A stretch of DNA of 64,000 nt from an uncultured virus (IMG/VR IMGVR_UViG_3300009128_000001) (IMGVR_UViG_3300009128_000001); one strand, 5' to 3'. Positions 37,505 through 64,000 are shown, counted from the stretch's first letter. Translations and numbers: made by a program. The notes: a model not told the origin generated them from the letters alone.

Positions 37505-40500
37505 TTACTCTCTACAATCTGCATGTATTGGTACGGCATAACTTATAGTTCTTCCACATGAATCCGCCTCCTGCTTACGAATTCTAAACACCACATCCTC
37601 ATTTTCTTGGAACCTTTGACCACAACATGGGCAAGCCTCATCGTCAAACCCCATATCGCCCTGGACAACAGTTTTAGCTCGAATTCGGCTGAACCTATTG
37701 GTATCTGAGCCTATATATCCCTCGTCATCATTTTCTGGCTCAAAATAACCATCATTCTGTAGCTCCATATTGCCGCCAAAAATAACATTTCCAGCTCCCA
37801 TCTCCCAATTTGGATCGCCAGTGGCTGTAACAGAAGTTGAGCTAAAGTCTACAGTATCATCGCCTATGCTGAACTGAGTTGCAGTAGATGCATCGGCTAT
37901 ATTGACAGTACCATTTGTTGAGCCAGCCCCGGGTATAATCGTGACAGTTCCGCCGGTATAGCTATCCAAAATATCATTTCCACCACTTAGAAGAAGACCT
38001 CCACCATTACCAGCATTTGCGTCGCCACCGCCGACCCACATCAATCCAGCATGAGAAGGCCCTGCTCCAATAGTACCCTGGCTACGTATTTGAAGCTGTC
38101 TGCCATCTGTGGTTGCCGAAGATTGTGATGCTTGGAATATATAAGGATCTACGACATCTTCACCAAATACTAATCCATAACCACCACCACTAGCCCCAAG
38201 TAAGATTTCACTCGCTTGGAGGCGCATATATCGGGTTCCGGCAATCATGGTATGGTATCCGCCTCCCGTTGGTACGTGGAAATGCATATCATTTACTGCA
38301 GTAGCGTCATTATTGCCGTAGATAATATTATTCGTATCTGTTACCCCCTCTCGTTCAGTTGTAACCAACGTAATATCAGCTGTATCGCCAAAGTTTCTAG
38401 CAATAATTCCGGCTTCACTTTCCATTCTGATTGCGCCATTACCAGGAACAATTGTACCTACTTCCAAAAATCCTTCAAACCTGCTGTCGCCAACAACCCT
38501 AAAGTCTTCAGCACCAGCCATGGAATTGGCCCCTATAACAACTGAGTCTGTTGCCCAATCTTCTGGGTACAAGGTCTGATTACCAGCATCGCGCGACCAA
38601 TATCCGTCAGACGATGGTGGGAAAGGAAACACAGTAACAAATGGATCGCCATCCAAAGATGCTCTAACTTCTTTTGCCGTATCATCATAAATAACACGAA
38701 GATGACCGGGAGAAGAAATCTCCGCATTTTCTCCATTGGCAATATCAAGAAATGCGCCATTACCAGGATCTTCTATAAAGACGCCAATCGGATCTAGGTA
38801 TCCATCTACAGTTAACTTGCCATCGATTTGTACATCGCCAGAGAACGTAGCCTCGGCTCCATCAATCTCTAATACTGTAGGGCCGCCCACCCTAAAGTAA
38901 TGAGATTCTCCGGCTGGAACCTGATAATATATGCTGGCCTGGTTAGCATCATTTTCACCAATACCTATAGATCCTGCAGCACATTGAAGAACATCCAGAT
39001 TATTCGAGAGCCCATCATCCCATTGTATAGAATCACCATTACTTAGGTTTAATCTACCCCCAGTTGCAGGATCTGGACCAAGATCCAGATCTCCCACAAT
39101 CTCTACATCATCATTGAACTCTGCAGCAACATCACATGACGCTAAGACCTCACTTACACTAAATCGTGTTATCCCGTTAGCCCTAAGCTGTATTTCTTTA
39201 TTTGCGGCGGCATACAGAATAACATCATTAACGCTGCCAAGATCGTCACCAACCGTTATGTTGTTATAACCGTCAACAAAAATACCCCTAATATCATCTC
39301 CATTACCAGCATTTCTCCAGTACACAGAGGCGTTATTTGCCAGCCTTAGAGCGCCAACCTGAGCTGGTATAGATCCTATTTCTACAAAGTTAGTTGCATC
39401 AAAACTAGAAGCATTAACTTCATTACCAAACGTAGCAACTCCTGCTCCAAAGTGCCAACTAGGGTTACCAGTGGCGGTAACCGAGGCTGTACCACCCATG
39501 ATAAAATCTAGTCCCGAATCACCAATGTCTATCATAGCATTTCCGGCACCATCATCCAGATAAAGAGAGCCATCAGCGTCAACACCCCCACCAGGCCTAA
39601 TTCGTATATCTCCACCTGAAGAAGCTAACCCGGTACAAGTTTGCGCCCGAATAAGAAGCATATCTCCTGTTTCTGATGGAGTTGCGTCATCATCTTGGGT
39701 TATTATTGGATCTGTTGAAACATTTGCGCCAAACTCTAGAAGCGGCACGCCAAGTTCTACTTTATTTGTATCGGCATCTATTGCGGCCACAGCGCCAGAC
39801 TGTAAAATTATACTGCTCGTAGGATTGACAGAGATTATTACATCATTTAAAGAGCCATGATCTGATCCTAGATGGAAATTATCGGCTCCATCTAATCCCA
39901 CCAAATCAATCTCAGCAGTCATACCACTGTCAGGCCACTTAATAAAGGTGTTATTGGCTAGCGATATTTCATCAGTACCTATTATTGGAGATAAGGTTCC
40001 TTCGACAGGATCTCTATACCAGTACCCATCACTCGCGCCTCCACCTGTGGGAGCTTGCCAGGTAGCATTCCCCAAACTATCCGAAGTTAACACATAACCA
40101 TTATTTGTAGGACTTCCAGTTATTTGCAGCGTGTCCAGTATAGTTTGTCCCGAAACATCCAACGGAGCTGTTGGCGTATCATTACCTATTCCGACATATC
40201 CATCTCCATCTATAATAAATACGCTATTTCCTTCATCCTCACAATTAAAGAAGTTACCTAACGTACCTCCCTCATTTTGAAGAGTAAGCATCGATGACAA
40301 CCTGGTGTTATACCCATCAATCTCGTCAGGCAATACCATAATCATGCCTGCGGCCAATTCCGAGCTGGTATCTATCGCGCCAACTTCCATCACCACGCCG
40401 ACTGCAGCCGAATCAACCCCCATGTTGCCACTAAATTTAGAATCTATACTAAGGCCTACAGCAAATGCGTCTGCTCCTATGTCTCCCAAAACACCTGTAT

Positions 40501-43500
40501 TTATTGTAAAGCCAGTACGCTCAGTACTATCAGGTATGTCATTTACCTCAAGATTAAATTCTACAGTATCTTCGCTACCGGGCTGTACATCTGATAATGC
40601 ACGAGATACATACATCACAGGAGACAGATCGTCACCAATGATTTTAAGTTTGTGACTGCCACTTGTATCAACAGTGCCGATAACAACATCATAATCAGGC
40701 TGTTGCGGCCTTATGGCATCTACACCATCCTGTATCCATAAGCCGCCGCCAGCGTAGCCATCACCAATAGGCTGGTATGATCCGCCATTATAAGATGCTC
40801 GCAATTCATTATTATACTGATCATATACTAGACGGCATGTGTTTGGAGGTGACAGATCTGCGCCATCTCCAACGCCCAACTCCAAAAAGGCATCTGCTGT
40901 TGGGCTATCTATAATAACAGCAATAGGATCTAAATATCCGTCTACTGTTAATTTTCCATCAATTTGTACGTCAGAACTAAACTCGGCATCCATTACACAT
41001 GAAAACAGTGATTCATCCACTCTGAAAACAGTGCTTACGGGGGCAAGTCCATCTTCTATCTCGAAATAGGCTCCCGACAGAGTTCCTCCCTCTTTTTCCA
41101 CCTTTAAAATAGTATCCATGTAAGACGCACTACCACCAATTAATGCCGGCTGTAATATATGTACGCCAGTAAATTCGCCATCCGCATCAATTTTGCCTGA
41201 AGATACTCTTAACCCAATGCCCTCCGCTGAAGCATCCCAAGATCCATCACTACCAGCATCAATATCTAGCCCTATACCAGTTCCACTAGTATTAGCGCCA
41301 AGACCGCCAAGAATACGCATAGCAGTAAAGGTGTTGCCAGAAGTCACGTCCGCTCTCGCTTGAACGTCCATAGCGATTTGTGTAGACACTGCGGTGCTTC
41401 CTGGACGAACAAATAATGCCATGGGCTCACCGGGAGTACCAAGAACTCTAATGGTTTCATTGCCAGACATTCCGGTAGTGCCTATAGCAACATTATCATC
41501 AAACACTGCATTGCCGACAACTCGGAACATTTCAGATCCGGCCATCTCGTCATCACCGACAACAACCTGATCAGTTAAATAACCATCTGGGAAAATTACA
41601 TTAGCCACCTCTGTCCATGGACTGCTGTCTGATTCGGTTAGGATATCTTCATAAGTATTTCCGTCCATTGAAGCCTGGAATGTTTGCGTAGACTCGTTAT
41701 AAATTATGCGGCCTTCGTCTGACTTACTAACATCGGAATTTTGACCATCATCCATCTCAAGACACATAGCCTGCCCGGACGGATCCTGAAGCCTAAACTG
41801 ATATTGACCAACAGGATCTTCTAAGAAGCGGGACCGCAACGCACCGCCAATATTGAATACAATTCCCTGCTGAGATGGAACGACCAAAGAAATAGAGGTC
41901 ATGTCAAAATCATTACCACCGATACTTACTCCATCACCCAAAGTATTAAGAATGGGAACGTCACCCAAACCACCAGCTGTTCTTGCATATATTTGTGTAT
42001 TAGCAGTTAAACGAATATCTCCTGTTTGCGCAGGAGTATCACCAAACTCTACATACTCGGAAACAAGAGATACATAAGAGTCAGTATCACCTACATTTGT
42101 ACCAACCTCTATTGCACCTCTGCCGTAACCATCTGTTATATAGACAATTCCATTTACGAAATCACCCTCTCCAGGCCTAATGAATAATGCTCCTCCAGTA
42201 CCGCCAGGATTTAAAGAGTCGCCGCCTTGTACAAATACGGAACCCCCACCTCCTCCAACAGCGCTTGCCTGACCTCGGATTGTAAGGTTGTTTGCCGCGC
42301 CACCGCCCGTATGATCAAAAAACGTTATAATACCCGAGCCCGAAGTGGGGTTTTCAGTAAACCTGAAAACTCCGCCACCACAAACAATATTTCCATCAAG
42401 TCTTAATTGCTCGCCAGAAACAGGTGATGACGCGCCCATTCCAAGCCCAATATAACCGCCGTTTACAGCCCCAGATACAACAACAGTTTGCACGCCACCA
42501 TGATCGAACAAATAAGCCTCACCAGATGTGGCCGAATAAAAGAACTCTGGTCCTCCGAATACTCCTGTGGCAAAATCACCTTGGACAGAACCAGATACTG
42601 TCGTGCCAATATTACCATAACCTTCCACGCCAAAAACAGCTGCAGGAGTTGTTCCATCACTATCTAGGAATTCAACCATTGTCCCGCTAGCGCCCGGAGC
42701 ACTAATAACAGTTAGAGTTCCGCCAACAGTGCTTGTACCTTCACCTTGGCCCAACAGAACTTGCATGGAGCCTCCCTCTCCATTCTGCATCCCATCACCA
42801 CTATAACCATCGCCCAGGTCTACAACAAGATCGCCACCATTCGCTGCAAATCCAGCACCAACCGCGGCGCCCCTTCCAGTAATAATACGCACCTGCGCTC
42901 CATCATAACTGCCAGAAGAGCCTCCAACAGCAGACGAACCTACTTCTAACTTGATATCACCGCTGTATCCATCAGAAGCTTCTGCAGTAATAATTGAAAT
43001 ATCAGGTATCCAACCAATTGGGCTTGTCGGAGGTCGGGCGCAAACTATATTTAGTTGTTGATCAAGGCACATAAAAGCAAATTCATGAACATTATCACCG
43101 GCATCCTCTCCCAAAACGGTAAAAGCGGACATCCAAGTGTTAGGATTGCCTTTTTCTGGAACTTCTGCAGTAAAAGCAGATATAAAAGCATCACCATCGT
43201 CACCGGCAAAACTTCTAGTATCAGACTTGAAACAATGAACCATATCATTGGGCCCAAGGGGATTCATGCGACGCATTTCTGTGTTTACTAAAGTGGCATC
43301 ATCAAAATCACACCACCCAGAAACATAGAGCACATCTTCATCTCCTGGCTGCCCATCCAAGAAGGTTATACCCTGAACGCGTAACTTTTCACCCTCTCCA
43401 GATGTAAACATTCCACCAATTACTACATCCCACTGGGTGTTCTGCGGAGAAAGCATGTACCCATCTCTTAATGACCAAAAGCCGTCATAGCCATCATATC

Positions 43501-44968
43501 CATCAGAACCAATAGGAATCCACCCATTAGTATCAGGAGTGGACATCTCCCATTCTCTCTCAAATTCATTATACCGCAATCTTCCAAAATCATCTGCGGG
43601 ACCTACTGGAGCTGCAAAACTTCCATCATGTGCTTCATAATATGCGGCATCTCCACCAGAATCTTCGATAATTACGGCCGTAGGATCAATAATACCAGCT
43701 ACCGTTAATTTGCCGCCTATAACAGCATCACCAACTACCTGGAATTGCTCTCCACCAATTGGACCTGCTGTTGCTGCCGGACCTATCCCTACATAACCGC
43801 TGTTTGTAAATGCATCCAGCAAAATATTGGTACTATTAAACTGATCATATAGCATCAATGATTCTTGTGTCTGCGAATAATACATGCGAGCCACATTCAA
43901 CTGTCCCGCAGAAAGATCCCCCTGATTAGTTGCATCAGCGGCAGACCCAAGTTGTAAGTTTCCTTCCAACTGTGTATTACCAACCACGCGAAGTTTTTCA
44001 CTACCAGTTGTAAAAGTATCGCCGATAACTACATTGTAATCTGTGTCATCAGGGAATAAATCATCTCCGTTTAACCTCCAATAATCATACCCATCATAAC
44101 CATCACCGCCAGGAGCCCAATGAACAAATCCCCAGGCATCAGATGTTAAAACATAGCCAGGTTGTGCGCCATCAACTAAGAAATACCGGCCGTCAGAACT
44201 GATACCAGAAAAAACATGACCATCACTACGAGTAAATCTAACTAAATCCCTAAATTGTCCGGGCGCACCCTGTAATCTGAATAATTGCTGCTGTCCATCT
44301 TGTGACTCAAATATAACTTGACCGTGTTCGCCACCAGCATATGCTAACCCGGGCCGTACTATAAAGCTACCGCCGGTCGAAACTGGATCTGGAACTGTTG
44401 CATTAGTATCACCCAAATCAAAAACAGCATCACCAGCACTATGAAAATATCCATCACCAGTGGAAACATGAAAATCGTAACCGTAACCATCAGATCCCTG
44501 CCATATTTCGATATTACAGTCGTTATCTAAGCATAAAATAGCAGTATCCCATCGAGACGGCAGCCCCCCTCCACCAGGGCCAGCCCCACTTACTAGCATG
44601 GCCGCAGCATGGGCATCACCAGCTGGATCTCTATTAGGCTCTATAGCTGCATATCCCGCTAATATTGATTGGAAAGCATCGCCAGCAACCTCAGAAACTT
44701 GAGCAAAATAACAAACAAGACCCTCTCCCTCATTCATCGGTGCTGTCCTAGTTATAGCTGCACCTACAACACCAGTATTTACAACACCAGGACCAAATGT
44801 GATATCAAAAATAACTGGAGGGGGACCTGGAACATCTAGAGTGGCTAGTACACCTAAATTCAATCCAGAGTCACGATCTCCGCTAATAGCTACTACGTTA
44901 TTTTGATCATAGCCATCTACCAGTACTATTTCTGGGATGCTTCTGTTATATATGAAACCATTCGCCAT
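37505..44968 (-). CDS. giant acidic Gly-rich modular fibre-like protein (2487 aa)
   Basis: Repeated KLTV.G..DP, GG...I..G.G and VGIG modules; 21 DGY; C-terminal CPCC...H..C. Confidence 0.7.
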   Translation of the reverse strand: MANGFIYNRSIPEIVLVDGYDQNNVVAISGDRDSGLNLGVLATLDVPGPPPVIFDITFGPGVVNTGVVGAAITRTAPMNEGEGLVCYFAQVSEVAGDAFQSILAGYAAIEPNRDPAGDAHAAAMLVSGAGPGGGGLPSRWDTAILCLDNDCNIEIWQGSDGYGYDFHVSTGDGYFHSAGDAVFDLGDTNATVPDPVSTGGSFIVRPGLAYAGGEHGQVIFESQDGQQQLFRLQGAPGQFRDLVRFTRSDGHVFSGISSDGRYFLVDGAQPGYVLTSDAWGFVHWAPGGDGYDGYDYWRLNGDDLFPDDTDYNVVIGDTFTTGSEKLRVVGNTQLEGNLQLGSAADATNQGDLSAGQLNVARMYYSQTQESLMLYDQFNSTNILLDAFTNSGYVGIGPAATAGPIGGEQFQVVGDAVIGGKLTVAGIIDPTAVIIEDSGGDAAYYEAHDGSFAAPVGPADDFGRLRYNEFEREWEMSTPDTNGWIPIGSDGYDGYDGFWSLRDGYMLSPQNTQWDVVIGGMFTSGEGEKLRVQGITFLDGQPGDEDVLYVSGWCDFDDATLVNTEMRRMNPLGPNDMVHCFKSDTRSFAGDDGDAFISAFTAEVPEKGNPNTWMSAFTVLGEDAGDNVHEFAFMCLDQQLNIVCARPPTSPIGWIPDISIITAEASDGYSGDIKLEVGSSAVGGSSGSYDGAQVRIITGRGAAVGAGFAANGGDLVVDLGDGYSGDGMQNGEGGSMQVLLGQGEGTSTVGGTLTVISAPGASGTMVEFLDSDGTTPAAVFGVEGYGNIGTTVSGSVQGDFATGVFGGPEFFYSATSGEAYLFDHGGVQTVVVSGAVNGGYIGLGMGASSPVSGEQLRLDGNIVCGGGVFRFTENPTSGSGIITFFDHTGGGAANNLTIRGQASAVGGGGGSVFVQGGDSLNPGGTGGALFIRPGEGDFVNGIVYITDGYGRGAIEVGTNVGDTDSYVSLVSEYVEFGDTPAQTGDIRLTANTQIYARTAGGLGDVPILNTLGDGVSIGGNDFDMTSISLVVPSQQGIVFNIGGALRSRFLEDPVGQYQFRLQDPSGQAMCLEMDDGQNSDVSKSDEGRIIYNESTQTFQASMDGNTYEDILTESDSSPWTEVANVIFPDGYLTDQVVVGDDEMAGSEMFRVVGNAVFDDNVAIGTTGMSGNETIRVLGTPGEPMALFVRPGSTAVSTQIAMDVQARADVTSGNTFTAMRILGGLGANTSGTGIGLDIDAGSDGSWDASAEGIGLRVSSGKIDADGEFTGVHILQPALIGGSASYMDTILKVEKEGGTLSGAYFEIEDGLAPVSTVFRVDESLFSCVMDAEFSSDVQIDGKLTVDGYLDPIAVIIDSPTADAFLELGVGDGADLSPPNTCRLVYDQYNNELRASYNGGSYQPIGDGYAGGGLWIQDGVDAIRPQQPDYDVVIGTVDTSGSHKLKIIGDDLSPVMYVSRALSDVQPGSEDTVEFNLEVNDIPDSTERTGFTINTGVLGDIGADAFAVGLSIDSKFSGNMGVDSAAVGVVMEVGAIDTSSELAAGMIMVLPDEIDGYNTRLSSMLTLQNEGGTLGNFFNCEDEGNSVFIIDGDGYVGIGNDTPTAPLDVSGQTILDTLQITGSPTNNGYVLTSDSLGNATWQAPTGGGASDGYWYRDPVEGTLSPIIGTDEISLANNTFIKWPDSGMTAEIDLVGLDGADNFHLGSDHGSLNDVIISVNPTSSIILQSGAVAAIDADTNKVELGVPLLEFGANVSTDPIITQDDDATPSETGDMLLIRAQTCTGLASSGGDIRIRPGGGVDADGSLYLDDGAGNAMIDIGDSGLDFIMGGTASVTATGNPSWHFGAGVATFGNEVNASSFDATNFVEIGSIPAQVGALRLANNASVYWRNAGNGDDIRGIFVDGYNNITVGDDLGSVNDVILYAAANKEIQLRANGITRFSVSEVLASCDVAAEFNDDVEIVGDLDLGPDPATGGRLNLSNGDSIQWDDGLSNNLDVLQCAAGSIGIGENDANQASIYYQVPAGESHYFRVGGPTVLEIDGAEATFSGDVQIDGKLTVDGYLDPIGVFIEDPGNGAFLDIANGENAEISSPGHLRVIYDDTAKEVRASLDGDPFVTVFPFPPSSDGYWSRDAGNQTLYPEDWATDSVVIGANSMAGAEDFRVVGDSRFEGFLEVGTIVPGNGAIRMESEAGIIARNFGDTADITLVTTEREGVTDTNNIIYGNNDATAVNDMHFHVPTGGGYHTMIAGTRYMRLQASEILLGASGGGYGLVFGEDVVDPYIFQASQSSATTDGRQLQIRSQGTIGAGPSHAGLMWVGGGDANAGNGGGLLLSGGNDILDSYTGGTVTIIPGAGSTNGTVNIADASTATQFSIGDDTVDFSSTSVTATGDPNWEMGAGNVIFGGNMELQNDGYFEPENDDEGYIGSDTNRFSRIRAKTVVQGDMGFDDEACPCCGQRFQENEDVVFRIRKQEADSCGRTISYAVPIHADCRE

Positions 44969-45109
44969 TATTATCTCACTATGTGTCTTGTTATTTTAAA
45001 CCAATTTACAATAAAATTGCTAAATTCAGCGCTTACAGCAATGCGAATTTAGGCGTTGGATGGTCCAAAATTTTGTTATTATTATGTTATTTTATTCAAG
45101 AAAAAAATA

Positions 45110-45925
45110 TTATAATGTTTTCATTGGCCACCAAGCAAGGGTCGCTCGCGATCCATCCTGGAAAAAATCAGTAATATCTGTAACTAAAGCGATAGATGTA
45201 ACATTTGCCCCGATGGCCGAGTGCGCTATCCTCATGTAAGAATGTTGTGTAGAAGAATAAGTTACAGCATCGCCCCAATGCATTACCCCTGCCCTAGTAT
45301 TTGCCATTATATATGTGTTATCTCTACCAGGCCAAATCCATGTTTGAAACCACCCCTCGTGCGGATTCACAAAATCACCATTATCTCCATGAAGTATAGC
45401 GGTTCTACTTCCAGAATAAATATTTTCAGATGCCGCACCTAAAGTTTCTTCAATTACGTAATAATTATTACCAGGATCTGGTCCATTTCCATTTATATCA
45501 AGGTACATTAAATACTCTGTTGTTGGGGCGTCCATTAGGCCAATATACATACAGGTAAGGCAGTAAGCTCCATCGCCATCGCCATCAAGATCAATAAACC
45601 TTATTTCATTTGCGGGGCTCCCAACAACCCTAATCGTTTCAATTTGTGTTAAAGACTCATCTATATGTATCAAATCACGACTGGTCCCCCCTCTAAACAT
45701 TTGGGGCCTTCCATTTGACACGTCCATTCCCAAATCACCAGCCTGTAACGCATTTTGTGATCCAGACCATCTAAGCACATCATGTCCAAGCACAGGAGTC
45801 GATTCAATAGTATTTTCACCAGCCTGCAAGCTTTGAAATGCACCACATACAATACACCTTTTACTTTGTTGCCACGGCCACAACCAAGTATGCTTTCCTC
45901 TTTTTTTGCATAGAGATTTCTTCAT
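45110..45925 (-). CDS. putative fibre-tip/receptor-binding protein, paralogue 1
   Basis: CKKRGKH.W.WPWQ..KRC.VCGA module; HEGWFQTWIW; ends WWPMK. Confidence 0.6.
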   Translation of the reverse strand: MKKSLCKKRGKHTWLWPWQQSKRCIVCGAFQSLQAGENTIESTPVLGHDVLRWSGSQNALQAGDLGMDVSNGRPQMFRGGTSRDLIHIDESLTQIETIRVVGSPANEIRFIDLDGDGDGAYCLTCMYIGLMDAPTTEYLMYLDINGNGPDPGNNYYVIEETLGAASENIYSGSRTAILHGDNGDFVNPHEGWFQTWIWPGRDNTYIMANTRAGVMHWGDAVTYSSTQHSYMRIAHSAIGANVTSIALVTDITDFFQDGSRATLAWWPMKTL

Positions 45926-45938
45926 TATTTTCCTGTTG

Positions 45939-46760
45939 TTACGGGAGATCTTTCATCGGCCACCATGTTAAAGTAAACCTACTTCCAGGTTCAAAAAAAG
46001 CACCAATATTACCATCAACTTGTATGGAGGTTATCTGATCTGCTTCTAAACGTAAAAATGAATGTGATGTAACAACAAAATCGTCGCCACCAAAATTTTC
46101 CGTATGTCCTGACAAAGTGTTTGCAAATATCCAATCATATGATTTTAATGCCCAAATCCAAGTCTGAAACCAACCCTCATGAATTTCACCATCGCCATTC
46201 CTAATCCACATAATTGGATGCGCTGTAGTTCCAGAAGTATGATCTTCGGAGATAGGGCCGCCTGGTAATTCATATCGTGTTTTTTCAATTCTATATTGTT
46301 CATTAACAGTTCCAGGATTACTATTAATATCAAGCTCAATCCAATGCGGAACTCCGGCATTATCTCCCTCAAAATAACCGGTCAAACAATAGGCAATATC
46401 CTCGTCGCCATTAATCCCAGTAAAATTGATTATTTGCGTTGGCACCCCCACTAGAGCGGTTCTTATTTGAACCATAGTTTCATCAATGTGTACCAAATCT
46501 CTATCCAAAGTGTGTATATAGGCCCTGGGACGCCCATTTCCGCTGCCTGTGGTCATTCCCAAGTCACCGGCCTGAGAGGTACCATTTGAGCTAGACCATC
46601 TCAAAATATCTGTAACTGGCGTAAGATCTGGACTCCAAGTTATTGTATTTTCTCCTACTTTCAGATTTTTAAACGCACCACACACAGCACAACGCTTAGT
46701 TTGTTGCCATGGCCATAGCCAAACATGCTTTCCTCTTTTTTTACATATACCAACGCTCAT
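45939..46760 (-). CDS. putative fibre-tip/receptor-binding protein, paralogue 2
   Basis: Same modules as 45110-45925. Confidence 0.6.
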   Translation of the reverse strand: MSVGICKKRGKHVWLWPWQQTKRCAVCGAFKNLKVGENTITWSPDLTPVTDILRWSSSNGTSQAGDLGMTTGSGNGRPRAYIHTLDRDLVHIDETMVQIRTALVGVPTQIINFTGINGDEDIAYCLTGYFEGDNAGVPHWIELDINSNPGTVNEQYRIEKTRYELPGGPISEDHTSGTTAHPIMWIRNGDGEIHEGWFQTWIWALKSYDWIFANTLSGHTENFGGDDFVVTSHSFLRLEADQITSIQVDGNIGAFFEPGSRFTLTWWPMKDLP

Positions 46761-46773
46761 ATATTGCCTTAAA

Positions 46774-47580: not shown

Positions 47581-47592
47581 TTGTTATCTTTA

Positions 47593-54846: not shown

Positions 54847-54890
54847 TACTCAATTTCCTTGTTGCGATTTCTTTGTAATTATTCGAACGA

Positions 54891-57800
54891 TTATAGCTCT
54901 ACTTTTGTAAACTTAACTGTAGCTCCCCACTTTAGATTATTACCCAAAGCACCAGTACAAATGATATCAAGCTCATCATTGCCACCTGTATCAACATCTA
55001 AATCACAGTCCCAAGCGCCCGTGCTTTCATCGCTTATTACTGTTTTATCCGGAGCATTGACCTCAGAAACGGTGCCGCCATAATGTTTGGTTGAATAGTA
55101 AAAATGCCACGAAGCCACATTGCCATTATCGCTATTTATAACCGTCACCAGTATATCAAAAACATAAGACGAGTCATCCTCCAATTGAAGCTCTTGAGAT
55201 ACTCCATCCAGGAACAATCGTGTAGGTGTAGCGTCTGTTGTTTCATTGGACATACCGAACGCTACACCGCTAATCACATCGGCAGAGTCATGTTCGATAT
55301 TTCCATTAATCTCTACTAGACCAGCTCTGCCATTAGCGCCATAACCATCACCAACAACGAGAACAAGATTTCCGCCATTAGTGTCAGCCCCCGAATCAGA
55401 ACCAGGTTGGGCCATAATTGTAAGATCCCTACCATCACCTGTAGTGGCATTTTCCTGAAGTATAACTGGAGTAACATCTGGATTAAATTCAAACAGAGTG
55501 GCATATCCATCAATCTTCAGGGAGGCCATATGCTCAACATAACCGCTATAAAAATCTATACTTCCATTATCTGCGCCTGGGCCGGCAGTTTCTCCACTGT
55601 ATAGTATCAAATTTCCACCATCACCACTTGCCGGATTAGTAGCAGCGCCAGCCAATATCTCCATATCAGCACCATCGCCAGTGGAGCTGCTTTGTGCCTC
55701 TATAAAGAACGAGTCGGCAACGCCTGTAGTATCAGCGTGTGCAATTCTAGCAACAATCCCATCATCAAAAATGAGGTTGCCAGCAGCATTTATTGATACC
55801 ATAACATCGCTTGAGCCATCTTGTATCTCTACGATATTTTCAATTTGACCAGGAGCAGCCATTACTGTAAGCGGAGTATTATTGGCATCGTCACTTTCTA
55901 TTAAGGAACGACCATATGCTTTGAAGTTTTCCGTTCCACTAAGTGCACTATCTCCAATTACAACACTATCAGATACAATCTCTGGATATAAAACGCCACT
56001 AGGATCGCGAGACCAATAACCATCGCCAGCGCCTCCGCCACCTACCAATGGTTGATATGGGTTGCCATCTGATGACTCTTCCCAGCGATTAAGAACCCCA
56101 TTATACCTAAGCCTACCACTACCTGCGGGAGAGGTTAATGCATTCTCGCCTCCCTCAAACTGCATAAAGGCATCATAACCGTCTCCGCCATATAGTATAA
56201 CCCCGCCACCATAACCAGCGCCAGAGCCATCCCCCAGTTCTATGGCAAAATTTCCACCATGCGCAGCGAGACCGCCGTTTGAATCTGCCCTACCGGTACG
56301 GATCGTAACATCTGCACCATCAACTTCTCCACCAAGACTAGCGGCAGCGTCACCAGCCCGGAGTAATATATCGCCTCCGGTATAACTGCCAGCAGAAGAC
56401 GCCATAGCCGAACCAGAAGCAATTGTTATGTCACCACCAGCACCATTATTGAAAGCATTAGCTGCCTGTAATACAATACCGTAACCGTCTGTATCACCAA
56501 GGGCGCCAGTTAACATTACATTTAACACCATGTCTTGATCTAGCGTAACAACAGTACCATCATATGCATGCTGGCCACGCATAGATAACAAGGCACAAGT
56601 GTAAGGATCTTCATTAGTTCCGTTAGATCCTAGTGCGGCAAACGAAGCTACTATACTTTGCGTGCTATCACTTGCCATGGTCCGAGAATTGGCCAATATG
56701 CCGCCTATAATACTTCCACTTCCTAATGCGTCATATCGCTCCATGTCGGCGTATATTATACCAGACTGAGATGCACCAAGAGAACCATCTACCCGTAATC
56801 CAAACTCTCCGCTTAATATGTTCCCAGCATTATTAAATTGCTGCCCCTCAACATGCAGAACTTCATTAGCAGTAGGGGTCATACCGCCTACCACTACGGT
56901 ATCAGCAAACGGCTGCCTTGGATAAATAATTGTTCCATTACGATCCCACTCAGAGTCATAGCCATCATCTGTAGCAATGGGGACATACGGCGCACCATCC
57001 TGAGAGATCATAAACTGCTGTACTGAGGTGTCATAGATAAGGCGACCAGAATTTCCTGGTGAAACAGCTGCATTCTGGCTATCATTAATTTGTAAATAAA
57101 ATTCGTCATGACCTGTTCCAGAAAGAACAACACCACCACCATGGCCACTATAACCATCACCAGGGCCGGTGACCATTTGAACATCACCACCATTGACAGA
57201 TCCTCCCCCTGGCCCGCTAGCTGCCGCGCCAGTATACATTCTGATATCAGAACCAGCTGCCGCTGCATTAGCTCCTGCCGCAGAATCACCAACTATTAAA
57301 TAAATAATTCCAGCACTATACGCACTGCCAGGCGATGTAGCTGTGGCATCCAGACTTTCCATCTCAAGGAATCCGGATCCTCCCTCACCATTTGGATAAC
57401 CAGTGTTTAGACGTATAGGATAAGAACTACCGGGGGTACTTCTGGCAGTACTAATGTTACATGACTGATTTAAAGTCATCACAGCGGTGTCATAATTGTT
57501 GCCAGCCGCTTCATCGCCACTAAACACAAGACCAAACATACCATTGCCGGCTGTTTTTGTTGGAACATCAGCATGAAAAGCCGTCATCCAAACGCCTGAG
57601 TCACCAGCATGATTGACAAGGGCCGTGTTATACGCTGCTATCATCTGGCCAGCAGTAGCCGCAGCATTACGAGTATAAGCTACATCAACACCATAATTAG
57701 TACCAATGGCATCTACCGTTTGATCAATATACAAGCTTCGTCCGCCTGTCACTTGCGTATATTCTATTTCAACCTTAGAGCCGGCAACTGGAGCAACAGT

Positions 57801-60800
57801 TCCGATTCCAACCTGATCAAAAGTAACATCTAGTGCTGTAACGCCATCTTCTTGTATCTGAACGTGCTGACCAGAACCAACATCAATTATCACGTCCGCT
57901 AAATACCCGTCATTATCGCCTATTAACAAATTGTTGGAAATATCAGTCCCAATTACAGTGATATTTCCATCATCTGTGGCATTTCTTGCAATAATAGATG
58001 CGTCATTTTCAAGTCGAATAGCACCCGCCCCAGGTAATATTGTTCCTATCTCGACCCAGCCTTCCAGTCTAGAATCACCAGCAACACGGAACGTTTCAGA
58101 GCCCGCCATAGAAGTATCGCCAACAACAACGTTCCAAGCTGCATTGTCAGGATAAACAACGCCACCAGCTTCATTCCAAGGTCCAGCACCAGTGCCTGTA
58201 GCTATTTGGACATACGAGCCCCCGCCTTCAGAAACCTCAAAACGACCAGTAGCATCATTATAACGTAATCTACCATCGCCAAGACCACTTAATCCGGCAT
58301 TTTGGCCATTACCCAGCTCTAAGAAGGCATCAGCTGTAGCGCTTTCTATAATAACAGCAACAGGATCAATATAACCATCTACAGTAAGTTTCCCGGCAAT
58401 ATCTACATCGCCACCAAACGTAGCTTGTGAAGTTCCAAAGTCCCAAGTAGGATTACCAGTAGCCGTAACAGTTCCTACACCACCAGCAAAATCAATCAGA
58501 TCATCCCAAAGTCTAACCATATTTAACAAAGATGCGTTTCTAATAAATACGCTTCCTTCGGTATCTCCGTCTCCTGGAGCAAGAATCACACTGCCGCCAA
58601 AAGATCCCATTGCAGTTGCTGGTGCCTGGCCGCCCGTAATCCATAAACTACCCGCAGCATAACCATCATCAGTGGTGCTTTGAGCCAATATAGACATATT
58701 TTCAGCATTACCAGCTGCAGTCGTTGTTTGAGAGATTGTGGGAGTAACAGTATTTACGCCAAATGTAAAATCGTCTTCTAATAATAAATCTCCACCAGTT
58801 ACTCTCAGCGCCTCAAGCCCTACGACAGAAGAAGCCCCAACAACCACTTGATCAGTAGTGGTAGATGGATATACAAACCCGGCGACATCCCTAGTCCAAA
58901 CAACAGGTCCGCCAGTTGCAAGATCTATATATGGTGCAGTATTAAATGACGCCTGGAATGTACCTGTAGCCTGATTGTAAATTAAACGAGCAGTATTAAT
59001 ATTGGATGTTGCGGCATTTTGTCCGTCTGCGATTTGTATGTGCTGCCCTTGGTGGAACAAAACATCTGCCAACCACAAGCCACCACCATCACCACCGCCA
59101 GCGCCCTGTCCGGTGACCATGACTATATTTCCACCATCAGCCGAACCACCACCAATGCCTGAGGCGCCATCTCCGGTAGTCATCCAAACACCACCACCAT
59201 CATCTTGATCGGCGCCTATGGCCTCCGCCGATGAGCCAGCTAAAAAGACTATAGCGCCAGGATTGGCATCATTAGGACCGGTGGTAGCGGCAGGATCACC
59301 AGCGATAATACTTACAGAACCGCCCGTGCCGTCGGTCATAGCATCCCCGCCCGAAAGATTGGCATCAAATCCAGATCCAGGAGTAATTCGTGTAGATCTT
59401 AACTCCAAATCGTGGTTTTCGGCAACTAATGTGGCGGTATATTCATCACTACTAGCAGGCCCTGGGGTTCTAGCTAAAAATGCATAACAATCATTTGGAT
59501 CGCCAGCACCAATAGATGGGGGTGCCGCCGTGAATGCCGAAACATAAGAACTAGCATTATCAGTTGCCAGCGTTTCAGCATAAGAAACTACACCAGCAAT
59601 ATGCTCGTTGGCAGTTAATGGGTTGGATCTTGACATTTCTACTTCGACAACGTTTACTTCATCGTCATCGAGAGTTGCTCTAAGCAGTGTACCACCACCG
59701 GCTACAGCAATTGTACCAGCATCAACATAGAACCGCTCCGGACCTGCCATAGCCGTATTACCAACCACCAAATCATGATCTATACTGGTATGTGTGGCAT
59801 TTACCGTAAGATAATCAGTAGCAGCAATACGTGCTACAAATACCGAATTAGCAACGGCCCTTATTGTTCCTGGCCTATTAGAGGCATTAGTATCACCAAT
59901 AAGTAGGACATCTGAACTGTCCAGACCAATAAGAGAGACATCGCCAATACCAACTACTTGGGGAGCACGAATAAATTCACTATTAGGTATGCGTATAACC
60001 CCGCTATCTGCAGGATTTGCACCAATAGCTATATCATCACCAATAACCTCCGGATACAAGAAACCGGAAGGATCTCTAGCCCAGTAACCGTCGGAATCTG
60101 TGCCGGTCAATAGTGGTGTATACGGGCCGCCATCAACAGATACCATAAGTCTAGTAGTTAAATCATCATATATAATTCGGGCAGTATCTGTCGGAGATAG
60201 GGCAGCATTTTGTCCCTCTCCTAATTCCAAAAAGGCGTCATCAGTTGCGCTTTCGATAATAACACCAATAGGATCCAGATACCCATCAACAGTTAATTTG
60301 CCGTCTATTTGTACGTCACCACCGAAAGTAGATAACGATGTTCCAAAATGAAAAGTAGGATTTCCAAGTGCAGTAACCGCCTGAGTTCCAGCGCCAAAAT
60401 CAACCACGCCGGTATCAGAATAAAATCTTACCATCTCTGCTAAAGAGGCAGTTCTTATTATAACGCGCCCTTCAGTATCTCCATCTCCAGGTTGCAAGAA
60501 TATAGAGCCACCTGCAGATGATCCTAATAATCCCGCACTTCCAGCCTGCAATAAAACATTTCCACCAGTAACAGTATTATCTGTAGTACTTTGGGCAAAA
60601 ATAGACAATGTTGTTGTAGCACCAGTTGTATCTTCGTGAGAAATAAGTGGTGATACAGTTGCAGCAGTAAATGTTAGGTTGCCACTAAGAACCTCGCTTC
60701 CATCAACATATAAAGATTCAGTGGCATATGGCGCCGTTGCTCCAGCACCAATGCCCACAAAACCACTGTTGGATACTGCGTCTAATGTTATTGTCTGCGC

Positions 60801-63800
60801 GCCAAAACTATCATACAGCAACAAGGAAGACGAACTTTGATCATATGACATTCTTCCATAACCGTCTATACCGGCGGTAAGATCTCCATAGGCAGAAGCA
60901 TCATTGGAAGAGCCGATACTCACCCAGCCATCGACCCCAGCTCTAAATACCAAATCGCCCAGCTGACTAACCATCCGCACAAATTCACCAGTAGCGAGTG
61001 TGGCCCCTGTAACTGTAAATACACCGTCAGAAGCCTGCCCAGAGCCTAACCTTACATCAAGCCCTCCTCCAGCACATAATGGGCCGGTTCCATCGCCACA
61101 CCATATAAGGGCTCCGCCACCATCACCAGCAAAACCACCGATTTGATTGCCATGACCACATAACAGCTGGATATCGCCACCACTATAACCACCAGGAGCT
61201 ACATCAGTCTGTCCGTTAGCAGCTATTAGCACCAAATCAGGACCAGGACCTTCAGGGACATTACTTGTCGAATGGATCTCAAATTGAGGCGACGCGCCAA
61301 GAGGATCCATCCCTCCTAACAACCTCGTAGCATAACCATCAAAATCAACCCTGACATTTCTGTTAGAGACCGTTTCCGAAACATCAAAAACACCAAACTC
61401 TCCGCCGGTTGGTCCATCGCCCTCTCCAACCTGTATAGCTACACTACCACCACGGACAATCTCGCCATCAGTACTGCTTCCGCTGCCACACTGTATAATA
61501 ACACCAGATCCATTGGCATGGGAAAGATTAGAGTCTGCATTACCAGTAGCTATAAACAACGATCCAGCAACGCGGCCTGTGCCAGGAGGAGCCAAACTAG
61601 CATCTCCGCTACCAGTTATTATATTGACCGATCCGCCATAACCATCATCAGCACCATCACCTGCACGCAAAGCAAGAACAGGGCCATCCCCAGATGAGAA
61701 AAATCTCTCTGTGCTCATTATCATCGGCTGATTTAGACATGTGACAATTGATGCATACTGCGTGTTCGGAGCAGAATCATCCCCTAAAACAAGAATAGCA
61801 GCATTTGGAGATGATGTGTCGGCAAAAGACGGGGTGTCAAATAAAATACCAAGAGTAGGAACAGACGGGCCATCACCGAGCGCATTTTCACATGATACCT
61901 TTACTGCAGATATGATTGCACCCGGAGGCGACGGATCTATTCTGTTCAAATCGAAATGTGCAAGTGAGGCATTTCCGCTATCACCAAGTCCAGTGAAATA
62001 TAAACCGTCTCCACCTGACGGAATCAATCCAGAATCAACTACTGTGCGACCATCTACAAAAAACTTCTCATCAGTGCCAAACATAGAAGACGATCCGACA
62101 GCAACATTCCACGCCTCCTGTTGTGGATAAACAGTATAACCATCTAAAAACCAAAGATCACCATACCCATCGTCTGTTTGTAAGCCAGTCCATCCAGCAG
62201 AAATAGGTGTAGAAACTTCCCACCTTTCAAGAACATCATTATAACGCAATCTACCAATGTTTTCAAACGGCAATACAGATGCTGCCGAACTACCATCATG
62301 AGCCTCATAATAAGCTCCGGTACCAGCGAATTTGTCCTCTACTATAACGGTAATTGGATCAATCACTCCCGTCACTGTTAGTTTTCCGCCAATATTTACA
62401 TCGCCGTCTACATTAAGCTGTTCTCCCCCAACTGGACCCATAACTGCAGTAGCGCCAATACCGATATAGCCACCATTTGTAAAGGCATCCAATAGAATGG
62501 TTGCCTGATCTGTGCCGTCTATTAGAGTTAATGATTCTTGTGGTTGAGAATATGTCATCCTGGCATAACCATCTATACCAACCCACAGATCTCCCTGTAA
62601 ATAAGTGTCGCCAACAACATGCAACTTCATCCCAGCGGTAGGCGTGGGAGTGCCTATTCCAACAGCATCTGTAACAGTGGTCAATCTTACAACTACGCCA
62701 TCATCTGTCCAACCGCCAGCTGTTGCGGCGGAAAGTGGAATATATGGCGCTCCAGCATATGACACAGCTAAAGAATTCATTCCGGCATGATAAATCAACC
62801 GTGCCTCAGGAGCTATCAAAGACGGAAACGCAAACTGACCATCGCCAAATTCTATATACCCTCCCGAAAATATCGTATCTTCTATACGCAAGCCGGACAT
62901 TGGGCTGTCTATTCTTACTGTTTCAGGATTAATCGGATTTATAGGTCCAGGTGCGACAACTGTTCCAAAACCAATAGCAACGTAAGGAAGTGTAGACACA
63001 GTGTTAAGTGCTTGTATCTGTATTATACCTTGATTTAGGTTGTCATAAAATGTCAAATCTTCGCTGGACTGATCATAAAATATCCTAGCGGCACCAGTCA
63101 AACCTGCCGATAAATCACCAACAGCAACAGCATCTGTAGATGTTCCGACACTTAACCATCCATCTACAACAGAATCGCCAGCCACACGGAATTTCTCTCC
63201 AGCCCCAGACATTGCGGTATCGCCAACAACAACGTCATAGTCTGTGTCTAAAGGAAATACAACATCGTTAAACAAAAGCCATAGATCATACCCGTCATAT
63301 CCATCTCCTGGGGGCTGCCACGAAGCTATACCAGCGGCATCAGACGTCAACACAAATCCTGGAGAAGCCCCGTCTATCATCTGAAAGTGGCCATTGCCAG
63401 TTACAGCGGCGAGTAATGTTCCGACGGGATCTTCCCATCTAGTTAAATCGGCAGTAGCGGGTACGGCAGATATAATCCTCATTGGGGTCTGATCGGCAAC
63501 AATGCTCCAAAATATAGCTGAGCCATGATTAGCTCCAGAGGGGCTAATTCCAGGAAACACTATAAAATTACCGCCACCACCAATTGTAGAGCCATATCCC
63601 AAAGTGAAAATGGCATCACCGCCAGCATACCCGTCATAACCATCGCCAGGCGCAGTATTAACGAGAAAATCTAGCCCAGGGCCTTGATCCCACCTATTAG
63701 TAGTAATCACACAATCATTACCGACAGTAGCTAAAGCATGGTCCCACGTGTTGCCGCCAGCCTGATCTCCAAACACAGTATAAGCAGCAGTATTTTGAAC

Positions 63801-64000
63801 TGTATGCGGTGATGTACGCCTAGGCTCTAGCGCTATATATCCAGCCAAAATTCCTTCTGCAGGATCTGCTGGATGCTCCTCAATTTGCGCAAGATAACAA
63901 CCAATACCACCAAAACCAACCATCGGCCCAGATCTAGATATATTAGAAGCAACAGCCGATTGATTTTGAATCCCGGCCCCAAAGTCCACATCAAATGTTA
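54891..64000 (-). CDS. giant acidic Gly-rich modular fibre-like protein (>3032 aa, 5' end outside window)
   Basis: Frame stays open to the window edge; start region aligns with residues ~52 onward of the 2487-aa paralogue (FDVDFGAG vs FDITFGPG); 22 DGY. Confidence 0.7.
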   Translation of the reverse strand, partial: TFDVDFGAGIQNQSAVASNISRSGPMVGFGGIGCYLAQIEEHPADPAEGILAGYIALEPRRTSPHTVQNTAAYTVFGDQAGGNTWDHALATVGNDCVITTNRWDQGPGLDFLVNTAPGDGYDGYAGGDAIFTLGYGSTIGGGGNFIVFPGISPSGANHGSAIFWSIVADQTPMRIISAVPATADLTRWEDPVGTLLAAVTGNGHFQMIDGASPGFVLTSDAAGIASWQPPGDGYDGYDLWLLFNDVVFPLDTDYDVVVGDTAMSGAGEKFRVAGDSVVDGWLSVGTSTDAVAVGDLSAGLTGAARIFYDQSSEDLTFYDNLNQGIIQIQALNTVSTLPYVAIGFGTVVAPGPINPINPETVRIDSPMSGLRIEDTIFSGGYIEFGDGQFAFPSLIAPEARLIYHAGMNSLAVSYAGAPYIPLSAATAGGWTDDGVVVRLTTVTDAVGIGTPTPTAGMKLHVVGDTYLQGDLWVGIDGYARMTYSQPQESLTLIDGTDQATILLDAFTNGGYIGIGATAVMGPVGGEQLNVDGDVNIGGKLTVTGVIDPITVIVEDKFAGTGAYYEAHDGSSAASVLPFENIGRLRYNDVLERWEVSTPISAGWTGLQTDDGYGDLWFLDGYTVYPQQEAWNVAVGSSSMFGTDEKFFVDGRTVVDSGLIPSGGDGLYFTGLGDSGNASLAHFDLNRIDPSPPGAIISAVKVSCENALGDGPSVPTLGILFDTPSFADTSSPNAAILVLGDDSAPNTQYASIVTCLNQPMIMSTERFFSSGDGPVLALRAGDGADDGYGGSVNIITGSGDASLAPPGTGRVAGSLFIATGNADSNLSHANGSGVIIQCGSGSSTDGEIVRGGSVAIQVGEGDGPTGGEFGVFDVSETVSNRNVRVDFDGYATRLLGGMDPLGASPQFEIHSTSNVPEGPGPDLVLIAANGQTDVAPGGYSGGDIQLLCGHGNQIGGFAGDGGGALIWCGDGTGPLCAGGGLDVRLGSGQASDGVFTVTGATLATGEFVRMVSQLGDLVFRAGVDGWVSIGSSNDASAYGDLTAGIDGYGRMSYDQSSSSLLLYDSFGAQTITLDAVSNSGFVGIGAGATAPYATESLYVDGSEVLSGNLTFTAATVSPLISHEDTTGATTTLSIFAQSTTDNTVTGGNVLLQAGSAGLLGSSAGGSIFLQPGDGDTEGRVIIRTASLAEMVRFYSDTGVVDFGAGTQAVTALGNPTFHFGTSLSTFGGDVQIDGKLTVDGYLDPIGVIIESATDDAFLELGEGQNAALSPTDTARIIYDDLTTRLMVSVDGGPYTPLLTGTDSDGYWARDPSGFLYPEVIGDDIAIGANPADSGVIRIPNSEFIRAPQVVGIGDVSLIGLDSSDVLLIGDTNASNRPGTIRAVANSVFVARIAATDYLTVNATHTSIDHDLVVGNTAMAGPERFYVDAGTIAVAGGGTLLRATLDDDEVNVVEVEMSRSNPLTANEHIAGVVSYAETLATDNASSYVSAFTAAPPSIGAGDPNDCYAFLARTPGPASSDEYTATLVAENHDLELRSTRITPGSGFDANLSGGDAMTDGTGGSVSIIAGDPAATTGPNDANPGAIVFLAGSSAEAIGADQDDGGGVWMTTGDGASGIGGGSADGGNIVMVTGQGAGGGDGGGLWLADVLFHQGQHIQIADGQNAATSNINTARLIYNQATGTFQASFNTAPYIDLATGGPVVWTRDVAGFVYPSTTTDQVVVGASSVVGLEALRVTGGDLLLEDDFTFGVNTVTPTISQTTTAAGNAENMSILAQSTTDDGYAAGSLWITGGQAPATAMGSFGGSVILAPGDGDTEGSVFIRNASLLNMVRLWDDLIDFAGGVGTVTATGNPTWDFGTSQATFGGDVDIAGKLTVDGYIDPVAVIIESATADAFLELGNGQNAGLSGLGDGRLRYNDATGRFEVSEGGGSYVQIATGTGAGPWNEAGGVVYPDNAAWNVVVGDTSMAGSETFRVAGDSRLEGWVEIGTILPGAGAIRLENDASIIARNATDDGNITVIGTDISNNLLIGDNDGYLADVIIDVGSGQHVQIQEDGVTALDVTFDQVGIGTVAPVAGSKVEIEYTQVTGGRSLYIDQTVDAIGTNYGVDVAYTRNAAATAGQMIAAYNTALVNHAGDSGVWMTAFHADVPTKTAGNGMFGLVFSGDEAAGNNYDTAVMTLNQSCNISTARSTPGSSYPIRLNTGYPNGEGGSGFLEMESLDATATSPGSAYSAGIIYLIVGDSAAGANAAAAGSDIRMYTGAAASGPGGGSVNGGDVQMVTGPGDGYSGHGGGVVLSGTGHDEFYLQINDSQNAAVSPGNSGRLIYDTSVQQFMISQDGAPYVPIATDDGYDSEWDRNGTIIYPRQPFADTVVVGGMTPTANEVLHVEGQQFNNAGNILSGEFGLRVDGSLGASQSGIIYADMERYDALGSGSIIGGILANSRTMASDSTQSIVASFAALGSNGTNEDPYTCALLSMRGQHAYDGTVVTLDQDMVLNVMLTGALGDTDGYGIVLQAANAFNNGAGGDITIASGSAMASSAGSYTGGDILLRAGDAAASLGGEVDGADVTIRTGRADSNGGLAAHGGNFAIELGDGSGAGYGGGVILYGGDGYDAFMQFEGGENALTSPAGSGRLRYNGVLNRWEESSDGNPYQPLVGGGGAGDGYWSRDPSGVLYPEIVSDSVVIGDSALSGTENFKAYGRSLIESDDANNTPLTVMAAPGQIENIVEIQDGSSDVMVSINAAGNLIFDDGIVARIAHADTTGVADSFFIEAQSSSTGDGADMEILAGAATNPASGDGGNLILYSGETAGPGADNGSIDFYSGYVEHMASLKIDGYATLFEFNPDVTPVILQENATTGDGRDLTIMAQPGSDSGADTNGGNLVLVVGDGYGANGRAGLVEINGNIEHDSADVISGVAFGMSNETTDATPTRLFLDGVSQELQLEDDSSYVFDILVTVINSDNGNVASWHFYYSTKHYGGTVSEVNAPDKTVISDESTGAWDCDLDVDTGGNDELDIICTGALGNNLKWGATVKFTKVEL

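Follow-up and report, generated by a model that had tools for sequence, protein, structure and literature searches.

A strict Asp-Gly-Tyr motif on the outer virion proteins of one huge-phage clade, a candidate acceptor site for phage-encoded tyrosine O-glycosylation

We find that the tripeptide Asp-Gly-Tyr (DGY) is strongly enriched in three giant fibre proteins encoded by an uncultured virus (IMGVR_UViG_3300009128_000001), where it is very probably a selected surface motif. The stretch of DNA analyzed here, called the window, is 64,000 nucleotides long and is part of a huge-phage genome. We propose that DGY is a candidate acceptor site for tyrosine O-glycosylation by enzymes that the phage itself encodes, a reading to which we assign a probability of roughly 40%. 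The three giant proteins, referred to as A, B, and C, and the module of C that was modeled are encoded as follows.

37505..44968, minus strand: giant fibre protein A (P0001), an open reading frame (ORF) of 2487 amino acids (aa) with 21 DGY and with modules common to B and C
47593..54846, minus strand: giant fibre protein B (P0007), an ORF of 2417 aa with 9 DGY
54891..64000, minus strand: giant fibre protein C (P0004), 3035 aa in the window with 22 DGY (full length 3086 aa)
57822..58469, minus strand: the modeled module of C (P0004 residues 1895-2110), consisting of a shaft with KLTV-DGY-IDP, a small beta domain, and a second DGY

One further DGY of C, at residue 18, lies past the window edge. 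The 21, 9, and 22 DGY in the window, which a first-pass annotation of this DNA had counted by hand without error, compare with 1.08, 0.93, and 1.28 expected from the composition of A, B, and C, respectively. That annotation had also roughly estimated that composition would predict a handful; the calculated total is 3.30 for the 52 observed. At 15.8-fold, the enrichment of DGY exceeds that of any other tripeptide in the three proteins. The enrichment survived every type of shuffling: shuffling single residues produced 3.30±1.84 DGY (maximum 12, n=2000), shuffling 10-residue blocks produced 4.18 (maximum 12, n=1000), and shuffling that preserved dipeptides produced 10.21±2.96 (maximum 19, n=500).

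The high Gly and Asp content of the giants and their modular build might suggest that the enrichment is an artefact, whether of composition, of repeats, or of the DNA sequence. Their pooled composition is 15% Gly, 9% Asp, and 0.8% Lys, and they are built from repeated modules that are 22-37% identical within and between A, B, and C. We corrected for repeats by clustering the 52 sites according to in-register flank identity, relative to random pairs. This left 25 independent contexts at a 99th percentile cut-off and 39 at the 99.9th, and the largest family of contexts, KLTV-DGY-[LI]DP, has seven members. DGY is encoded by 12 codon versions, and the two copies differ in their codons in each of four tandem DGYDGY sequences, which points to selection on the protein and indicates that the tandems are not the product of fresh slippage. 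Together, the shuffles, the 25-39 contexts, the 12 codon versions, and the differing tandem codons rule out an artefact, for which we see a negligible chance. The first-pass view that DGY is not a by-product of one repeat is therefore borne out; all 11 of the strings quoted there are present, and the paired contexts in which DGY was said to come and go are visibly homologous.

The motif is strict, in that Asp, Gly, and Tyr are all required. The near-variants DGF (2), DGW (2), NGY (1), EGY (3), TGY (1), SGY (3), DAY (0), and DSY (2) and the permutations YGD (3), GDY (1), and DYG (0) compare with 52 DGY in the giants. DGY accounts for 52 of the 73 Gly-Tyr dipeptides and 52 of the 243 tyrosines, and the coupling of Asp and Tyr across Gly has an odds ratio of 21.7 (table [[52,114],[21,997]]). 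The flanks are featureless: across 216 sites (129 non-redundant) in 20 DGY-rich proteins, no position is enriched more than 2.7-fold, and this maximum comes from tandem copies. Val (13), Ile (5), and Gly (12) are found at position -1, many of the sites following a beta-strand-like hydrophobic run. A literature search on "DGY motif" found nothing, and a search on tyrosine glycosylation together with phage and tail fibre returned toxin-related mentions only.

DGY is restricted to outer tail, baseplate, and fibre proteins. The remainder of the window (positions 1-35167) contains 43 ORFs (9789 aa) with 2 DGY vs 1.44 expected, and the four proteins encoded next to the giants, referred to as D, E, F, and G, contain 1, 0, 0, and 0. 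Two related genomes place these counts in context. The first, G001 (119,629 bp), is collinear with the window, with ordered counterparts for each of the 23 ORFs in the 21.6-64 kb interval of the window (mean identity 60%); the best G001 match to B, ORF 75989-80935, is 60% identical over a 582-residue alignment. Given this collinearity, and the sheath-initiator and Baseplate_J genes of G001, gene order places the giants within the set of tail and baseplate genes of a tailed phage. The second genome, G022, is complete (435,004 bp) and contains homologues of 17 of 50 window ORFs (mean identity 40%). Its 453 ORFs of at least 100 aa contain 100 DGY vs 18.6 expected, and 63 of these, vs 2.7 expected, are in 10 ORFs (8505 aa) that all lie at 197-296 kb. 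Outer tail, baseplate, or fibre proteins in every case, the 10 include a 1147-aa tail protein (19 DGY), the two baseplate-proximal proteins, and the tail sheath, with 3 DGY, every one outside its conserved core. The portal, large terminase, head protease, 1667-aa tail protein with lysin activity, and ribonucleotide reductase have none. The earlier expectation that DGY would be confined to structural proteins proteome-wide thus held in this complete relative. A separate feature of the 10 DGY-rich G022 proteins is their Lys content of 1-3%, compared to 7-11% in most other large ORFs. Fibres of unrelated control phages with the same module are also Lys-poor, so Lys depletion is more widespread among fibres of this type.

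A, B, and C could not be placed in any Pfam or PHROG family, and tblastn against 50,697 deposited phage records gave no match to the giants. An exhaustive search with 1200 residues of C against 1.84 billion representatives returned 210 proteins at E <= 1e-3, of which only six are close giants, namely P0001, P0004, and P0007 of the window and P0002, P0003, and P0008, with 15, 26, and 10 DGY, respectively. A 5319-aa giant in G001 has 38 DGY vs 2.2 expected and no DGF. It is a single uninterrupted ORF (L001:10956 through L006:6215), unusually long for a phage fibre gene. The 144 distant matches (91,070 aa) contain 33 DGY vs 16.9 expected, with two exceptions, P0015 (7 vs 0.74) and P0082 (8 vs 0.19), the latter being DGY-rich with a different repeat; no locus was found for P0082. 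At the shaft position, 72 distant instances have TGA (24), TGV (11), TGL (7), DGA (6), TGS (6), and others, with a single DGY (in P0015). Likewise, the linker between modules in the distant family consists of Gly/Ser/Ala runs ahead of a conserved Trp, at which the window proteins have DGY at a shifting register (SDGYW, DDGYGDLW, DDGYDSEW, GDGYAGGGLW, and DGYDGYDGFW). Because distant copies of the module have TG[A/V/L] and Gly/Ser linkers, DGY is specific to the clade and is not needed by the fold. Taken with the repeat-corrected enrichment and the Asp-Tyr coupling, these substitutes in distant homologues uphold the first-pass proposal of a short linear motif under independent selection.

Conservation among orthologues gives a view of how the Tyr is used. 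C and its orthologue P0003 are 53% identical, and 16 of the 23 DGY of C are kept (16/21 with an aligned Tyr), including some in stretches of 31-36% local identity; in the reverse direction 16 of 26 are kept, and 8 of 15 are kept between P0002 and A. In a dockerin-like baseplate protein of the relatives, DGY is kept in 5-7 of 8 orthologues at several sites. We pooled five orthologue sets (the dockerin-like protein, nine sequences; a giant protein with a Laminin_G domain, the LamG giant, seven sequences; and three pairs of giants) and found that 525 of 767 ordered comparisons, between pairs that are phylogenetically non-independent, retain the DGY tyrosine. A lost Tyr is replaced by Phe or Trp in 10 of 242 cases (4%), compared to 1024 of 2864 (36%) for other tyrosines of the same proteins, and by polar residues or Gly in 66% compared to 39%. 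The size of this effect argues that the Tyr ring is not packed in a core, and the polar spectrum of the replacements agrees with the exposed positions proposed in the first-pass annotation. At the C-terminal end of the G001 protein encoded at L002:10653-13622, a DGY site kept in 6 of 8 orthologues is expanded to DGYDDGYSDGYSDGYG, a local array of the DGY tag with a four-residue period.

To place the motif in a structure, the 216-residue module of C was aligned (alignment A1) with 14 paralogous copies and 33 distant relatives and then modeled. In the AlphaFold2 (AF2) monomer, with a predicted local distance difference test score (pLDDT) of 81.6, residues 1-53, including KLTV-DGY-IDP, are extended without intrachain partners, and a small beta domain follows. 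A homotrimer of residues 1-150 modeled with ESMFold2 had an ipSAE interface score of 0.88 vs 0.00 for the best of three controls, a pLDDT of at least 89, and contact agreement of at least 96%. Of 30 proteins solved as one-chain pairs, 20 reach the ipSAE mark, as does 1 of 23 solved as single chains; this calibration is only approximate here, as a custom alignment and three copies were used. The interface comprises residues 6-43 of every chain, with the shaft DGY inside it, and the giants are thus predicted to be intertwined homotrimeric fibres. The monomer model had no Foldseek match at E <= 1e-3, no sequence match to the giants was found in the PDB, and Pfam searches with 20 module relatives gave one sub-threshold YadA_head match only.

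One interpretation of these models is that DGY is a structural element, an Asp-Gly turn with a Tyr in which an Asp-Tyr hydrogen bond, within or between chains, staples turns and Gly-rich linkers with no enzyme or partner involved. A direct Asp-Tyr contact would give the observed coupling of the two residues, many sites follow a hydrophobic strand-like run or a Gly, the position in the wider family is a [T/D]-G-hydrophobic turn, and the shaft DGY is in the modeled trimer interface. However, a local staple should not be limited to one clade and to the outer proteins of that clade, when TG[AVL] is found across the 72 instances of the same module elsewhere and 17 control fibres contain 8 DGY vs 3.65 expected. 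The shifting register in the linkers, the presence of DGY also at the variable position 7 of canonical calcium loops in the dockerin-like protein, and the replacement of lost Tyr by polar residues and not Phe also speak against a staple, and we consider this explanation unlikely.

The calcium loops themselves raise the alternative that DGY is a metal-binding turn, binding Ca2+ as in EF-hand or dockerin loops or Fe3+ through triads of Tyr and Asp on the threefold axis. With 9% Asp, the fibres are very acidic, and two DGY occupy positions 5-7 of the canonical loops DVNGDGYITxxD in the dockerin-like baseplate protein of the relatives. In the window, however, none of the 52 sites fits the pattern D-x-[DN]-x-D-G-x-[ILV]-x-x-x-[DE], even partly, and no canonical loop is present in A, B, or C, so the metal-binding turn suggested in the first-pass annotation failed this comparison. 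In orthologues, position 7 of the loop is Y, I, E, K, V, F, S, or T. In EF-hand and dockerin loops this position ligates through the backbone, and given this backbone ligation and the variability of position 7, metal binding does not explain the requirement for Tyr. The register shifts in the linkers are a further difficulty, and a role in metal binding is very improbable.

We infer that a clade-specific factor reads the DGY tag, with the phage-encoded glycosyltransferase island as the best candidate for the reader. In G001, Baseplate_J precedes the genes for a 2232-aa Laminin_G protein (5 DGY) and the 990-aa dockerin-like protein (12 DGY vs 0.30 expected), and an island of ~32 kb comes next. 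This island encodes nine Pfam-supported glycosyltransferases (GT1/GT4, five GT2, GT10, GT11, and Glyco_trans_1_2), together with a GDP-mannose dehydratase, two epimerases, a DegT aminotransferase, WbqC, a hexapeptide acyltransferase, four sulfotransferases, four methyltransferases, and a thioredoxin-like protein. The order Baseplate_J, LamG giant, dockerin-like protein, GT4, GT2 recurs in L009/L016, L013, L014, L015, L017, and G016 and is partially present in L010 and L011; it was thus seen in every relative for which this DNA could be examined. Across these relatives, the LamG giant has 3-7 DGY, the dockerin-like protein has 3-12, and the enzymes have almost none. No family of Wzx, Wzy, priming transferase, O-oligosaccharyltransferase (OTase), or ABC exporter was found among the ORFs scanned, which come from partial genomes (81 in G001, 18 in L009-L011, and 34 in L013/L015/L017). 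These same ORFs thus lack what the lipid-linked, en bloc route of surface-layer (S-layer) glycosylation would call for. Two other island ORFs deserve mention. One, of ~320 aa (G001 L002:17609-18580, with counterparts in L009, L013, L015, and L017), has no Pfam family and no PDB sequence match, and its predicted structure resembles GT9 heptosyltransferases (template modeling [TM] score 0.64/0.69); it is possibly a protein-directed transferase. The other (G001 L003:4091-5167) resembles a LAGLIDADG/NUMOD3 homing endonuclease.

The island GT4 matches Pfam PF00534, PF13439, and PF13692 (Glycos_transf_1 / Glyco_transf_4), and its AF2 model (pLDDT 94.5) has a GT-B fold. Foldseek matches to GlgM, MshA, BshA, PglA, and PimA (E 5e-15 to 5e-12, TM ~0.47-0.72) suggest a generic retaining GT-B enzyme of family GT4. 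It has 692 homologues at E <= 1e-10, many of them on contigs of 200-460 kb. As controls, we used 17 viral contigs that share the KLTV fibre module, collected with a tighter alignment of that module (A3). Their matched ORFs contain the 8 DGY vs 3.65 expected cited above, with no more than 2 in any one ORF. Of the control records, 16 were searchable, and the GT4 was absent from 15 of them, none of which is DGY-enriched. The exception, G016, has the GT4 at 52% identity and is the control richest in DGY, with 5 vs 0.19 and 7 vs 0.48 in its baseplate pair. The GT4 was found in 6 of 6 DGY-positive records searched, or 7 of 7 counting G016. The co-occurrence of glycosyltransferases in related genomes, which the first-pass annotation had proposed looking for, was thus observed, with negative controls.

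Other chemistry on the Tyr hydroxyl, such as sulfation, phosphorylation, nucleotidylation, ADP-ribosylation, or dityrosine cross-links between fibres, would also require Tyr and not Phe. The G001 island contains four sulfotransferase genes, and genes for NAD synthase, a PARP-like protein, and a macro domain are present in the window. However, of the DGY-rich records, PF17784 is found in 1 of 5 and PF00685 in 2 of 5, and neither of these sulfotransferase families is found in either of the two complete DGY-rich genomes; a phage sulfotransferase was therefore rejected as a conserved partner of DGY. Among the ORFs scanned there was no protein kinase family, which argues against phosphorylation. 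PARPs with WGR and regulatory domains, which the PARP of the window has, are typically DNA-break-sensing, and this argues against ADP-ribosylation. We regard this group of modifications as distinctly doubtful.

Alternatively, DGY could act without any covalent change, as a patch of Asp/Tyr turns that makes weak multivalent contacts with a host polymer or that serves as a docking site for an assembly chaperone or for the small proteins encoded among the giants. Seven successive genes occupy the minus strand from 64000 to 35168 in the order C, B, G, F, E, A, D. Those not yet described are as follows.

45110..47580, minus strand: E, F, and G, three paralogues of ~270 aa each with a Cys/His-rich head and 0 DGY
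35168..37501, minus strand: protein D, 777 aa, with an N-terminal head as in E, F, and G and 1 DGY

These four proteins have a common adaptor-like head and sit among the giants, and an exposed-like substitution spectrum, presence on outer proteins only, and many copies per fibre are what a non-covalent patch would be expected to have. Against it, three residues with featureless flanks in unrelated structural contexts make a poor binding site, the strict order (52 DGY compared to 3 YGD, 1 GDY, and 0 DYG) better suits a reader of linear sequence, and the sites far outnumber the candidate partners. We find such a patch quite unlikely. E, F, and G are probably small receptor-binding or accessory proteins, and the triplet is kept in G001 (locus L001). 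The head of D and of E, F, and G (45110-47580(-), 35168-37501(-)) has the pattern CKK.GKH.W.WPW..KRC.VCG and may be a zinc-binding adaptor for docking different receptor-binding bodies. The single match of D, to DUF1565, is sub-threshold in Pfam (E 0.0063, 16.3 bits vs a cut-off of 20.3). D, E, F, and G were considered as enzymes and rejected, as no enzyme family was found for them in Pfam or PHROG and they resemble small fibre or adaptor proteins.

If DGY is a glycosylation site, the conserved retaining GT4 encoded directly after the baseplate and fibre genes, and then several GT2 enzymes and the GT9-like enzyme, would act together. Working in the cytoplasm, either while the fibre is assembled or afterwards, they would construct a glycan straight on the hydroxyl of the Tyr, and the outcome would be sugar-coated fibres. 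A broader form of this proposal, which we hold a shade more tentatively, is that a clade of huge phages has its own cytoplasmic protein glycosylation, with a strict DGY sequon and a Tyr-O linkage, that coats fibres, baseplate, and outer sheath. As a part of the same broader proposal, and with the same reserve, the phage-made glycans may be fucosylated, methylated, and, in some members, sulfated, judging from the island enzymes.

Several points weigh against glycosylation of DGY. The glycosyltransferase island was not seen inside the 64-kb window, whose only glycosyltransferase-like ORF (6070-7101) has a match below threshold. No GT4 homologue was traced to the window's own contig among the best 120 of the 692, so the island is predicted for this phage from collinearity only. 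The nearest solved relatives of the GT4 act on sugars, lipids, and small molecules, which makes the fold uninformative about a protein acceptor, and islands of this type could serve in DNA or host-surface modification. The GT4-positive records probably form one clade, and the 7-vs-15 split may therefore reflect a single evolutionary event. The shaft DGY lies in the modeled trimer interface, where access of an enzyme after assembly is uncertain. The non-independence of the pooled orthologue pairs inflates the p-values of the substitution comparison, and the other 443 ORFs of G022 contain 37 DGY vs 15.8 expected. No cultured relative was found.

If phage-encoded glycosylation of DGY is correct, the three giants would bear ~150 glycans per set of trimers, and DGY would be the first defined acceptor motif for phage virion glycosylation and a rare example of proteins O-glycosylated on Tyr according to a readable code. 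Sequence would then suffice to predict glycan-coated fibres in hundreds of uncultured huge phages, with a bearing on host encounter, evasion of recognition, and survival outside cells. The tag and its enzyme would also be a compact pair for glyco-engineering. Even without glycosylation, a strict three-residue tag on the outward-facing virion proteins of one clade demands an explanation.

Other features of the window and its relatives lie apart from the motif. The left half of the window encodes NAD synthase, the PARP-like protein, a macro domain, IMPDH, DHFR, exonucleases, and peptidoglycan hydrolases. A gene set for NAD and ADP-ribose metabolism (9841-11319(+), 14194-15021(+), 21619-22503(+), 23136-23636(+)) comprises the PARP-like protein (WGR, regulatory, and catalytic domains), NAD synthase, the macro domain, and an isochorismatase-like protein, possibly a nicotinamidase; the PARP and NAD synthase have homologues in both G022 and G001. 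A single 782-aa ORF (16508-18856(-)) fuses an M23 peptidase domain, a CCA-adding enzyme (PolyA_pol head), and an HD domain, and it has a 42% identical homologue in G022. A gene for a matrixin-like zinc metalloprotease (34108-34761(+)) adjoins the fibre cluster and has a 66% identical counterpart at the same place in G001. A 343-aa ORF (6070-7101(+)) has a sub-threshold Glyco_trans_1_3 match (E 0.0094) and a 40% identical homologue in G022, with none in the portion of G001 compared and no solved relative. G001 also encodes a TubZ/PhuZ-like tubulin (L004:6008-7369) and a ribonucleotide reductase split by a LAGLIDADG-bearing intein (L004:13713-17522).

Known glycosylation systems resemble parts of what we propose. 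Four core glycosyltransferase families are reported from the moraphages, a group of large, uncultured phages from aquatic habitats; the portion of that article available to us lists modification of DNA, of host serotype, and of the virion as known roles (PMC12619734). Both groups are large phages with several glycosyltransferase families of unsettled target; the difference is that the same portion of the moraphage article mentions no acceptor motif (PMC12619734). A cytoplasmic precedent is provided by the autotransporter heptosyltransferases TibC and AAH, dedicated enzymes that hyperglycosylate a long, repeat-rich adhesin at many sites, as described in the part of the source consulted (PMC4358343). 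The likeness here is the conserved island ORF that is GT9-like by predicted structure only, a lead. Known enzymes of the TibC/AAH type modify Ser, not Tyr. Linkage to Tyr is found in Gram-positive S-layer proteins, to which beta-Glc or beta-Gal is O-linked and whose glycans are built on a lipid carrier, from which an O-oligosaccharyltransferase moves them during secretion; neither "consensus" nor "sequon" is used in the available part of that review (PMC2943079). The O-linkage to Tyr on a surface-displayed, self-assembling protein, proposed here, would be common to both, whereas the phage islands are without Wzx, Wzy, priming transferase, and OTase families among the ORFs scanned. In mycobacteriophages, virion glycans are located at the C-termini of capsid and tail-tube subunits (Freeman et al. 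2023, as cited in the accessible part of PMC12619734). There, as in the DGY-positive relatives, phage-encoded glycosyltransferases adjoin structural genes and glycans on virion proteins are proposed or have been shown. The present case, known from sequence alone and with an island of ~32 kb in one relative, differs in that the candidate acceptor is a Tyr in a strict DGY motif that extends across fibres, baseplate, and outer sheath.

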